The notes below the pieces were generated by a model, which worked only from the letters and a program-made list of their open reading frames with translations, was not told the DNA's origin and made no database searches. Of a stretch of DNA of 64,000 bases, positions 1-3,000 are shown in pieces; position 1 is the first letter of the stretch, and the number at the start of each line of letters is the position of its first letter. The position numbers were made by a program, and so were the translations under genes. Origin of the DNA: Bdellovibrionota bacterium (GTDB lineage Bacteria; Bdellovibrionota; FAC87; UBA2466; JACKAF01); the NCBI GenBank assembly GCA_041391485.1, contig JAWKNY010000001.1, positions 5,877 to 69,876 on the forward strand, given 5' to 3'.

Positions 1-3000
1 GTCCGTACAACGTCCTCCAAACGACGATACAGCGACAAAGTTAAAAGAGATTACGGGAGTAAGCGTATCGGGTGCCGCACTTCACCAGGCCGCCATCATG
101 GAGTTCAGCAATTGGGGCGCCGCTCTGGTCGCCTCGGGGATAGATCCCAAAGCGATATCAAAAAGAACCGAATGGACCGAGGAGATGCTCCTCACCGCAA
201 TCAAGTCTCTGGACGGACGCTTCCCTGATGCATCGCGGCGGGTGTCGCCCGCAATACGAGCGCAGAAATCAAGCTGCACATGAAAACAATTTTAGGTAAG
301 CCCATCACCGGAAGTGCCCTTTACGACGCGGCAAAAAACCACTTTGGAGGTTGGCCTCAGGCACTGGAGGCCGCCGGCTTTGATCCAAATAAGATTAAGG
401 CGTACGCGGAATGGGACGCGGATAAGGTAGTAAAATGTATTCAAGCTCTAGACGGCAAGATACCGCTCAACATCGATCATATCCTCAACGAAACACCTGA
501 GCGCCTGAGCCCCTTTTTAAAACCAATCCTGGGGAAAGATAGCAATGGACGCGCCCTACGCATGGCCGCGCAACGCTACTACGGCGGCTGGCCGCAAGCG
601 CTTGAGGCGGCCGGAGTGGATCCCAAGAGTGTTCGTAAGTCCGCTCAGTGGACTCGAGAGTTAGTAGTAGAGGCGATAAAAACACTCGAACCCGAAGAGT
701 TGCACCCAGACCTGCTTCGCTTAGAGGGCTCGACCGAACTCCGCGAGCGCTTGCGACAGGTCACAGGTTTTCTAAACGCCGGCGTTGATCTCCATCAGGC
801 CGGAGTGCATCACTTCGGAAGTTGGGAGGCAGCCCTGTGGGCCGCCGGGATAGATCCTTCGACCGTCAATAAAAGAGTAAACTGGGAACCGAATAGCCTG
901 GTGAGTTTTGCAAAGTACCTGGTAGCCAATCGATTGCCTCTTGGACCGGCCGCCATCCTAGCGACCGACAAGCCAGAGATCAAAGCCGAGTTGGTAGCAC
1001 GTTTTGGAGAGAAGGCCACGCTGGCACGATTCGTCCAGGCGGCATCGGTAATTTTCAAAGGTTGGGCAAACTACCTGAAAGCCGCGGGAATAGATGAGTC
1101 GGAAGTACGACTGCTTTCAAGGTGGGACGGGCAAGCCGTGGTACGTGCAATCCAAGACTTGAAGCAAGAAGGCGTCCCTTTGGACGAACGGCAGATCTCA
1201 CAGGATACCTCTTCTGAAACTCGGGACCTTCTGCAACGCAGCCTAGGCAGACGTGCTAGCGGCAGAGAGCTCTATCTCGTCTCCACCGTTCTCTTTGAAA
1301 ACTGGGAAAATGCTGTGCGCTTTGCGACGAATCCGGGGGCAAAACTAACGCGCGATCAAGTGGGCAAGGCCATCCGTGCCTTGGAGGCTATAGAAATTTC
1401 CACAGACATGTCTTCGATGAAAGCGGGCTCCGACACGGGAGACGCCGCAATTGAAAATGCGATCGGCGTCAAGGTGACGATGCCCGACCTGTATTTGGCG
1501 GGAGCCGTTCTCTTCGGCTCGTGGCGAGTCGCCCGAAGGCTACAAGGTGTCAAAGTGGCTGAAATGAAAGGTGACGATGAGAACACCCGATCCGATCGCT
1601 CCCGACTGATCGTGCTGATCAAGCACCTACACGCAAGCGGCGCCAATTTGGGCCGCATCGAGGAATGGGGACCCAAGGAGCGCAGCCTACTCGAAGATTT
1701 TTTTGGCAAAGCGATTGTGCCCTCAACCCTGCACCTGACATGCCGAGCGATCTTTGGAAGCTGGGAAGCCGCACTCCGCGCAGCAGAACTCAATCCGCGC
1801 GACATCTTGATTCGCTACCGCTGGTCCCGTGCCGATGTGCTTGCCGCACTCCTCCACCTCTCGCACAGCGCAACGAGCATTGAGAAGAGCTCCATTCAAG
1901 TGGATGAGTCCATCGGAACGGCAACCGAAATCAGCTCTATCTTAAACCGAAGGGAATCGGGACACACTCTCTACTTGGCAGCAGTGGACTACTTCGGCTC
2001 CTGGGAAGCGGCCCTCACGGCGATCGGCCTTTCCACCACCGGTAGAGCCAGAGTATCTCTTCCAGAAGATAAAATGCGGGATGCCTTGCAAGCACTCGCT
2101 GAGAATCACGTCGCACTGAGTGAGCTCGATCTCGTCACGGATGAGACGGAAACTACACAAGCCGTCTTGGCATCCTCGGTGGGACGTCGTCTGACGGGTG
2201 GGCAGTTGTACCACGCACTACGATCCCACTACACCGAAAGTTGGGAGAATATCCTCGTCAAGAACGAACTCAATCTCTCGCGCGTAAAGAAAGATATTTT
2301 GGCATCGGGTCGCTTTGGCCCCTCTCTAACCGTTCACCGCAAGAAATCGATCACTCGAACCGCCGCCACTCAACTGAGTCGGGACGAGATTATCAAAGCG
2401 ATCACGGCTCTACACGCGCTGGAAATTCCGATTTACGCCAGTGCTATCAAAACGGACAACTCTGAGAAAACTCGATCAACACTTGAGGAAGTGCTTCAGA
2501 TCAACCTCTCGGGTAGACGGCTCCACCAGTCGATCAAGCCAGCATTCGAAACCTGGGACGAAGCACTCGCTGCGGCCGGTATTAACACTCGCCAACTCCC
2601 CATGCCAGGACGTTGGAACAAAGCGAAAGTAACCGCAGCGCTGGAGATTCTTAGCAATAACAACGTAGGGCTATCAGCAAGCGAAATGATGGCACTAAAG
2701 GATACGGCCGTTTTGGGCCTGATCGAACCGATTTTCGGAAAAAGTCTCAAGAGCGGAAGTTCTTTGTATTCGGGCGCCGTCACTCAGTTTGGATCCTGGG
2801 ACAACGCCCTGCGATCGGCGAATATCGAACCTGGCTCCGTAAAAAAGAAGTTCGCCCGGCGGGCAAATCTTTCCATGCTTCCTTACCAAACTGAGGGCAC
2901 CGGGAGTGATGAGGACTTCCGCTACCAACGCTACATCGGCACCCCCCCAGAGGCGCCCGATCGCGGGCTCGAGGTCAATGCGTTCCACGACCTCGTGGAC

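Follow-up and report, generated by a model that had tools for sequence, protein, structure and literature searches.

A predicted exported array of fourteen enlarged PF18780 modules in a Bdellovibrionota bacterium

The locus and the integrity of the gene

The DNA analysed here, referred to as the window, is a stretch of 64,000 nucleotides (nt) from a Bdellovibrionota bacterium (assembly GCA_041391485.1). It corresponds to C1:5877-69876, where C1 is contig JAWKNY010000001.1 of a 3.46-Mb, 44-contig genome. Positions 1-3231 of the plus strand are almost wholly one reading frame, and they form the 3' three quarters of a single gene of ~1,325 codons (C1:5131-9107). The precursor that this gene encodes is made of a signal peptide, a short acidic leader with one conserved cysteine, 14 tandem modules, and an acidic, helical C-terminal domain. 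We call it the window protein.

The start codon is a GTG at C1:5131, 745 nt ahead of the window, with GGAG placed 12 nt before it. The array extends into the upstream 5.9 kb in two further frames, the N-terminus and modules 1-2 being encoded in C1:5131-5876. Within the window, an open reading frame (ORF) that is open at its 5' end (2-283) and an ORF of 983 amino acids (aa; 280-3231) overlap by ATGA. The ~1,325-residue protein is therefore a conceptual join of four frame pieces, made for analysis only. An earlier note, made from the window alone, had described at least 12 modules in positions 1-2860. That minimum stands, as the protein has 14 modules and 12 of them lie in 1-2850, but the array is not in one frame and a conserved non-repeat domain follows the last module. 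The features of the gene, all on the plus strand, are as follows.

Upstream of the window, +: GTG start, signal peptide MYWKFLIIASLCFAGFGVAS, acidic cysteine-containing leader, and modules 1-2
1..166, +: module 3 of 14, which begins 73 nt upstream of the window
167..405, +: module 4, holding the third apparent frameshift at ~230-235 (GCGGCGGGTG)
406..642, +: module 5, six helices in the AlphaFold model
643..876, +: module 6
877..1116, +: module 7
1117..1356, +: module 8
1357..1575, +: module 9, 73 aa, without the first Trp
1576..1815, +: module 10
1816..2055, +: module 11
2056..2295, +: module 12
2296..2607, +: module 13, with a 24-aa low-confidence insertion ahead of the module (the relative P0025 has an insertion at the equivalent place)
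2608..2850, +: module 14
2851..3228, +: linker and conserved acidic C-terminal domain, ~125 aa
3229..3231, +: stop codon

There are three frame changes within 1 kb of the 5' part of the gene, one at window ~230-235 and two upstream of the window. All of them occur at short GGG/CCC runs, and no in-frame stops are present. Since the third falls in module 4, the start of the 983-aa ORF at ATG 280 is probably artefactual. Other genes of the same assembly are also broken. For example, gyrB is in 2 pieces (C32:2820-5248; one G is missing in CCGGAT), rpoC is in 3 pieces (C6, minus strand), and clpA is in at least 8 frame pieces (window ~33800-36100; C1 ~39.7-42.0 kb). The residues of these three genes are otherwise well conserved, and rpoB, uvrA, secA, and lon are whole. 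Given the frameshifts in gyrB, rpoC, and clpA, it is reasoned that the three 5' frameshifts are probably assembly errors and that the gene is intact.

A different explanation is that the frameshifts are real. The gene would then be a decaying pseudogene or would have a truncated product, export would be lost, and the cell would make either nothing or a cytoplasmic 983-aa remnant from ATG 280. This explanation was favoured at first, since ORF lengths across the genome seemed normally distributed for an intact assembly, and it was largely dropped after the frameshifts in gyrB, rpoC, and clpA were found. Three frame changes within 1 kb speak for it, as do an uninterrupted 983-aa ORF that begins with ATG and the absence of synteny of the gene with a same-genus genome. 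However, the breaks in gyrB and rpoC, which are essential, and in clpA show that indel errors are present in this assembly and are clustered. Moreover, the out-of-frame pieces have no stops and still encode good modules (81-91 bits), and ATG 280 lies inside module 4 with no Shine-Dalgarno sequence before it. We regard decay or truncation as unlikely.

A further split is seen downstream. An ORF of 460 aa for an AMP ligase (window 4603-6187 region) stops at 5985, and a 69-aa ORF (5978-6187) overlaps it in another frame and carries a C-terminal AMP-binding-like motif (TATSAGGKVNRAEL). Probably these are not two coupled genes but a single one, split by a frameshift of the assembly. Clustered indel errors affect every ORF-based reading of the window, and therefore split ORFs in it should not be taken as pseudogenes or coupled small genes without read support.

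Upstream of the gene are an NtrC-type regulator, small exported proteins, an RlpA-like protein, and an exported protein of 289 aa; downstream are a SnoaL-like protein and an AMP-ligase operon. The 289-aa protein, encoded directly upstream of the gene and outside the window (4087-4956 of locus L004), has no Pfam match. Its orthologue in a genome of the same genus (62% identity) adjoins a histidine kinase and not the repeat gene, and the window gene is not syntenic there. The RecA of the genome shares 97% identity with one labelled Bdellovibrionaceae/Bdellovibrionales bacterium, which comes from a metagenome-assembled genome (MAG). The contig of one relative is labelled Deltaproteobacteria.

The repeat array and its enlarged module

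The periodic array described in the earlier note is real. All 12 helix strings that it listed are present and its Trp spacings match. The Trp residues of the FGSW motif are at positions 289, 368, 447, 525, 605, 685, 758, 838, 918, 998, 1102, and 1183 of the conceptual protein, and the spacings of the second Trp are 237, 237, 234, 240, 240, 219, 240, 240, 240, 312, and 243 nt. When the units were made into a hidden Markov model (HMM), it recovered 14 full-length copies, each scoring 71-93 bits. Each of the 14 units has two Trp anchors, in the motifs W..e.vv.aI..L and FGSW..AL.AAG. At the nucleotide level no tandem DNA repeat is found in the array; the copies are old and diverged, and only a 41-nt block of the motif reaches 63-83% identity.

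The assignment to Pfam PF18780 (HNH_repeat) made in the earlier note was borne out. The 983-aa ORF matches this family in 7 stretches, scoring 100 bits (E=9e-29) where the cut-off is 26. There is no other significant Pfam domain in the ORF or in the upstream pieces of the gene, and NCBIfam gave no match. Weak Pfam matches to CW_7, Clp_N, PaREP1, and HTH_11 were set aside as uninformative; each of them maps to the FGSW..AAG hairpin. The core motif of the family is W..e.li.al..l...G..P......L..AA...FGSW..AL.AAG.dP. The gene is the sole PF18780 locus of the genome. By Pfam, there is no nuclease in the protein or among its neighbours, which are RlpA-like, SnoaL-like, AMP-ligase, and unknown proteins, nor does one occur elsewhere in the genome alongside a PF18780 repeat. 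As a result, the association with HNH or homing-type nucleases that marks the family is absent here, as the earlier note had seen for the window.

The unit is also longer than usual, as noted earlier, at 80 instead of about 55 aa. The period is 73-104 aa, mostly 78-81, and not the ~54 residues typical of PF18780. The reason for this becomes clear from the relatives. P0004-P0006 and P0008 match the unit HMM only at columns 1-30 and 48-80, which corresponds to canonical units of ~55-60 aa, whereas the window protein and a set of others match it over all 80 columns. Therefore, the long unit is a canonical ~55-aa PF18780 unit with an inserted helix of ~20 aa (HMM columns ~31-48).

An AlphaFold model of three modules, computed with an alignment of 13 non-overlapping module triplets, has a predicted local distance difference test (pLDDT) score of 88.6 and a predicted template modelling score (pTM) of 0.52. 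There are six helices per unit in this model: H1, the helix of the first Trp motif (the W-helix); a short H2; the inserted H3; H4, which is the helix that the earlier note had singled out; H5, carrying WxxALxAAG (W..ALEAAG); and a short H6. For the whole 983-aa ORF, pLDDT is 73.5 and pTM is 0.28. The modules are thus confidently folded in the models, but with pTM values this low no fixed inter-module geometry is predicted.

Foldseek searches of the PDB with both models gave no match at E<0.1 (best E 0.1-1). Kinship to helix-turn-helix (HTH), transcription activator-like effector (TALE), tetratricopeptide repeat (TPR), or other folds was looked for in this manner in two runs, with no PDB match at E<0.1. 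In a Foldseek search of viral models, the only matches were to two phage proteins that are themselves uncharacterised (E about 0.01-0.03). The unit found nothing when its profile was searched against PDB sequences, and the PDB has no solved PF18780 structure. A literature search found no paper on the function of PF18780, and the accession is mentioned in one paper only.

Relatives, export, and the C-terminal domain

An exhaustive phmmer search of 1.84 billion representatives found 1,530 proteins at E<=1e-3, 51 of them at E<=1e-30. The best match, P0025, is a 1,227-aa protein on a 248-kb metagenome contig (E=2e-185, 33% identity) and is colinear with the full ORF (its residues 237-1226 align with query 1-982). 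A signal peptide precedes its 13 modules, a matching C-terminal domain follows them, and its PF18780 score is 132.7 bits. Its insertion lies between its modules 11 and 12, which are modules 12 and 13 of the window protein. At least two long modules are found in about 65 of the 164 best representatives, and most of these end in the C-terminal domain. Of 40 genomes from the same genus and order, 9 encode members, and these have 3-7 modules. A separate family search that started from a 3-sequence alignment returned mostly short-unit Planctomycetota proteins.

The long-module proteins make up an unnamed family (P0025, P0002, P0003, P0007, P0027-P0044, and others, together with G001, G008, G016, and G034) whose architecture is identical to that of the window protein, save that a basic N-terminus may stand in for the signal peptide. 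With 14 modules, the window protein is the longest plain array seen; other members have 3-13, and there are a few giants. The giants P0045 (7822 aa), P0115 (7388 aa), and P0026 (3538 aa) have N-terminal hydrophobic segments and 4-10 long modules at the end. The C-terminal domain ends two of the three and is not detected in P0115, and P0026 has no other Pfam domain. One MAG (GCA_044227445.1, JBGAWT010000055.1, 2636-10402) carries four to five tandem signal-bearing paralogues on one strand, each with the leader motif C..P.AL..E and the same C-terminal domain.

The gene contexts of P0025, P0003, P0007, and P0011 are mutually unrelated, and a BLAST comparison of all neighbours among seven loci found none shared, so a conserved operon or neighbourhood was rejected. 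PADLOC gave no defence-system match for the ORF or for P0025, which argues against the anti-phage scaffold that the earlier note had entertained. In PHROGs the match is to a family of unknown function, and P0025 weakly matches a 'DNA binding protein' (E=4.6e-4).

Canonical PF18780 arrays, with units of 54-58 aa, occur in haloarchaeal HNH endonucleases (a Haladaptatus locus) and in P0005, a fusion with a superfamily 2 (SF2) helicase and an Mrr-like nuclease. They share the core motif and the all-helical, tandem arrangement with the window protein. In contrast to them, the window protein has a ~80-aa unit, no nuclease or helicase, a Sec signal peptide, near-neutral modules, and a C-terminal domain of its own. 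The short-unit arrays of Planctomycetota (Pirellulaceae and Brocadiaceae; L017-L045) are repeat-only and without an enzymatic domain, like the window protein. They differ from it in their short units, their very basic character, and the absence of both the signal peptide and the C-terminal domain, and they are often encoded by a pair of genes for ~290 and ~184 aa. In this pair, which recurs at the Planctomycetota loci L020-L044 and in many Pirellulaceae genomes, a short-unit PF18780 gene of ~290 aa comes directly before a conserved three-unit gene of ~184 aa (MIRETIIRKIVE...).

The earlier note had left open whether the unseen N-terminus holds a signal peptide or a nuclease. It holds the former and no nuclease. 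Translation from the GTG begins with MYWKFLIIASLCFAGFGVAS, followed by TP after the cleavage site, a typical Sec signal peptide. By inspection and hydropathy it reads MYWK-FLIIASLCFAGFGV-AS/TP (slash, cleavage site), with a basic n-region, a hydrophobic h-region, and a cleavage motif of small residues. Signal peptides were judged throughout from the n-, h-, and c-regions, AxA-type sites, and hydropathy, and they are seen likewise in P0025, P0003, G001, G008, G034, and G016. Among the representatives with at least three long modules, 29 have a signal-peptide-like N-terminus, mostly with a single cysteine within about 20 residues after it. The other 19 have none and begin with a basic stretch.

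The two groups also differ in charge. The net charge per module is +1.9 in the 29 signal-bearing proteins and +5.7 in the 19 signal-less ones (p=1e-5). In the window protein, module charges range from -4 to +7 and the isoelectric point (pI) of the whole protein is 6.2, compared with a pI of 10-11 for cytoplasmic short-unit relatives. On these figures, the putatively exported subfamily has given up the bulk of the positive charge that a DNA binder would be expected to carry.

The C-terminal ~100 residues of the window protein are acidic (pI 4.35) and are modelled as five helices at residues 893-978 with a pLDDT of about 78-89. This domain is common to most long-module relatives and has no Pfam match. 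A profile search against PDB sequences gave weak winged-helix-type matches only (ArgR N-domain, E=0.017; winged-helix domain of MCM4, E=0.05), and a word-based search with the domain alone found nothing but the window protein itself. A likeness to sigma-70 region 4 was suspected by eye, since the relative G024 has a true sigma factor at that place, and it was rejected after hhalign and Pfam gave nothing. The 647-aa ORF of G024 (C256:4078-6018) begins with a hydrophobic stretch and contains four degenerate long modules together with an ECF-type sigma factor, in which both Sigma70_r2 and Sigma70_r4 exceed the Pfam cut-offs. Barring an error of assembly, this is a module-sigma fusion.

Module surfaces and what the array may bind

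The earlier note had pictured a conserved scaffold with one hypervariable helix that sets specificity. Column entropies were calculated over 52 long units from ten proteins. Within the 11-residue string of H4, positions G49, L52, Y53, A55, and A56 are conserved, and so is F60, which follows it. The variable face of H4 consists of six exposed positions (50, 51, 54, and 57-59), whose entropy averages 3.37 bits. The exposed positions of H1 and H3 come close to this, at 2.92 and 3.24 bits, respectively. Taken over its full length, the H4 segment reaches 2.68 bits and varies less than either the insert (2.95) or the loops (2.8-3.2). Therefore, a conserved scaffold with one variable helix overstates the pattern: the core of H4 is conserved, and its exposed face exceeds the 2.9-3.2 bits of other exposed positions by little.

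Individual modules, on the other hand, have kept their identity. When the 14 modules of the window protein are compared with the 13 of P0025, identity along the diagonal is 22-44% and off the diagonal about 24%. Given this clear module-by-module diagonal, the order and identity of the modules predate the split of the two proteins. In the exposed columns of H4, identity is 23% on the diagonal and 8% off it (p=4e-4); in those of H1, the values are 31% and 13% (p=5e-6); and in the exposed columns of the H3 insert, they are 15% and 14%, which is not significant. Because diagonal identity exceeds off-diagonal identity there, the exposed faces of H1 and H4 carry module-specific information. In the G008/G034 orthologue pair, which is smaller (50% identity), no H4-specific signal is seen. 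Of the idea that H4 sets specificity, the part that stood is that its exposed residues are module-specific and kept in P0025; the same holds equally for H1, so that the property is not confined to H4. Module-specific H1/H4 faces fit ligand recognition and specific inter-module packing equally well.

Based on these observations, we favour, with moderate confidence, an intact, Sec-exported, flexible 14-module array that serves as a multivalent binding scaffold outside the cytoplasm and has a tail for docking or oligomerisation. Such a protein would act like flexible beads on a string. The ligand would be polymeric or multi-subunit, and each module would meet it with a surface of its own, the exposed faces of H1 and H4. 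Docking or oligomerisation of the scaffold would fall to the C-terminal domain. What suggests a nucleic-acid ligand is solely the ancestry of the module, namely the HNH and helicase/Mrr company of short modules. The low charge of the exported subfamily argues for another ligand, either a protein or an envelope polymer. Because of the signal peptide and the low charge, the DNA-binding suggestion is weakened for the window protein.

Several observations weigh against the exported scaffold. The signal-less, very basic subfamily has the same modules and the same tail. Since short-module relatives are fused to a helicase and an Mrr-like nuclease (P0005) or to HNH (the Haladaptatus locus), the ancestral role of the module was probably DNA-related. 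G024 places degenerate modules in a cytoplasmic context by fusing them to an ECF-type sigma factor. The frame breaks are unevenly spread: all three fall within 1 kb, and the 3 kb that follow have none. Finally, export is read from inspection of the n-, h-, and c-regions and AxA-type sites, and is to be taken as probable.

A second way to read the array places it outside the cell as well, as a secreted nucleic-acid binder acting on matrix DNA, in DNA uptake, or, in a predatory Bdellovibrionota cell, in handling the nucleoid of its prey. In this case the export signals, the affiliation to Bdellovibrionota, and the module's DNA-linked ancestry would fit together, and tandem expansion of paralogues is typical of secreted families. 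However, the exported subfamily has lost most of its positive charge, no nuclease, competence, or secretion genes are nearby, and a predatory lifestyle of this uncultured lineage is only presumed. We think such a role improbable. In a more specific version, exported arrays of 3-14 modules would be secreted sequence- or structure-selective readers of extracellular or prey DNA/RNA, using their H1/H4 faces while the acidic tail regulates or docks them. This we hold to be more doubtful still; if true, it would be a natural modular reader unrelated to TALE, PUF, or PPR proteins.

The earlier note itself had proposed a modular nucleic-acid reader that uses its variable helix in a TALE-like way, or a nucleoid or anti-phage scaffold; either would be cytoplasmic. 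This proposal is consistent with the HNH, Mrr-like, and SF2 helicase domains that accompany canonical PF18780 units, the strongly basic character of signal-less long-module relatives, the module-specific exposed residues of H4 and H1 that are kept between orthologues, and the weak PHROGs match of P0025. It is at odds with the signal peptide found in the window protein and in half of the subfamily, with near-neutral modules, and with variability that is not confined to one helix or residue pair. The low pTM, the missing Foldseek match to HTH or TALE structures, the negative PADLOC result, and the unconserved neighbours also count against it. We judge a cytoplasmic reader or nucleoid scaffold to have little likelihood for this protein.

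The comparison with TALEs can be made more precise. TALE repeats are 33-35 aa long, near-identical save for two residues, and form a superhelix that wraps DNA. The TAL effectors of Xanthomonas resemble the window protein in having tandem helical modules in a conserved order, and they embody the concept of one module for one piece of ligand. In contrast, the window modules are 80 aa long and about 25% identical, their variability is spread over the whole surface instead of being held in one element of a near-identical short repeat, and there is no confidently predicted superhelix and no structural match at E<0.1. In the strict meaning of the term, the window protein is no TALE-like programmable reader.

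With this locus, an enlarged PF18780 module is defined, together with a family of fixed architecture that exists in two versions, one putatively exported and one cytoplasmic. PF18780 is a widespread module that is experimentally unstudied. Retention of module identity between the 14-module window protein and the 13-module P0025 is expected if the modules recognise different things, and the exposed positions of H1 and H4 provide a concrete set of surfaces for testing recognition. Should the ligand be a nucleic acid, the array would represent a natural modular reader of a new kind. With a protein or an envelope polymer as the ligand, a 'DNA-enzyme' module would have been re-used outside the cell.

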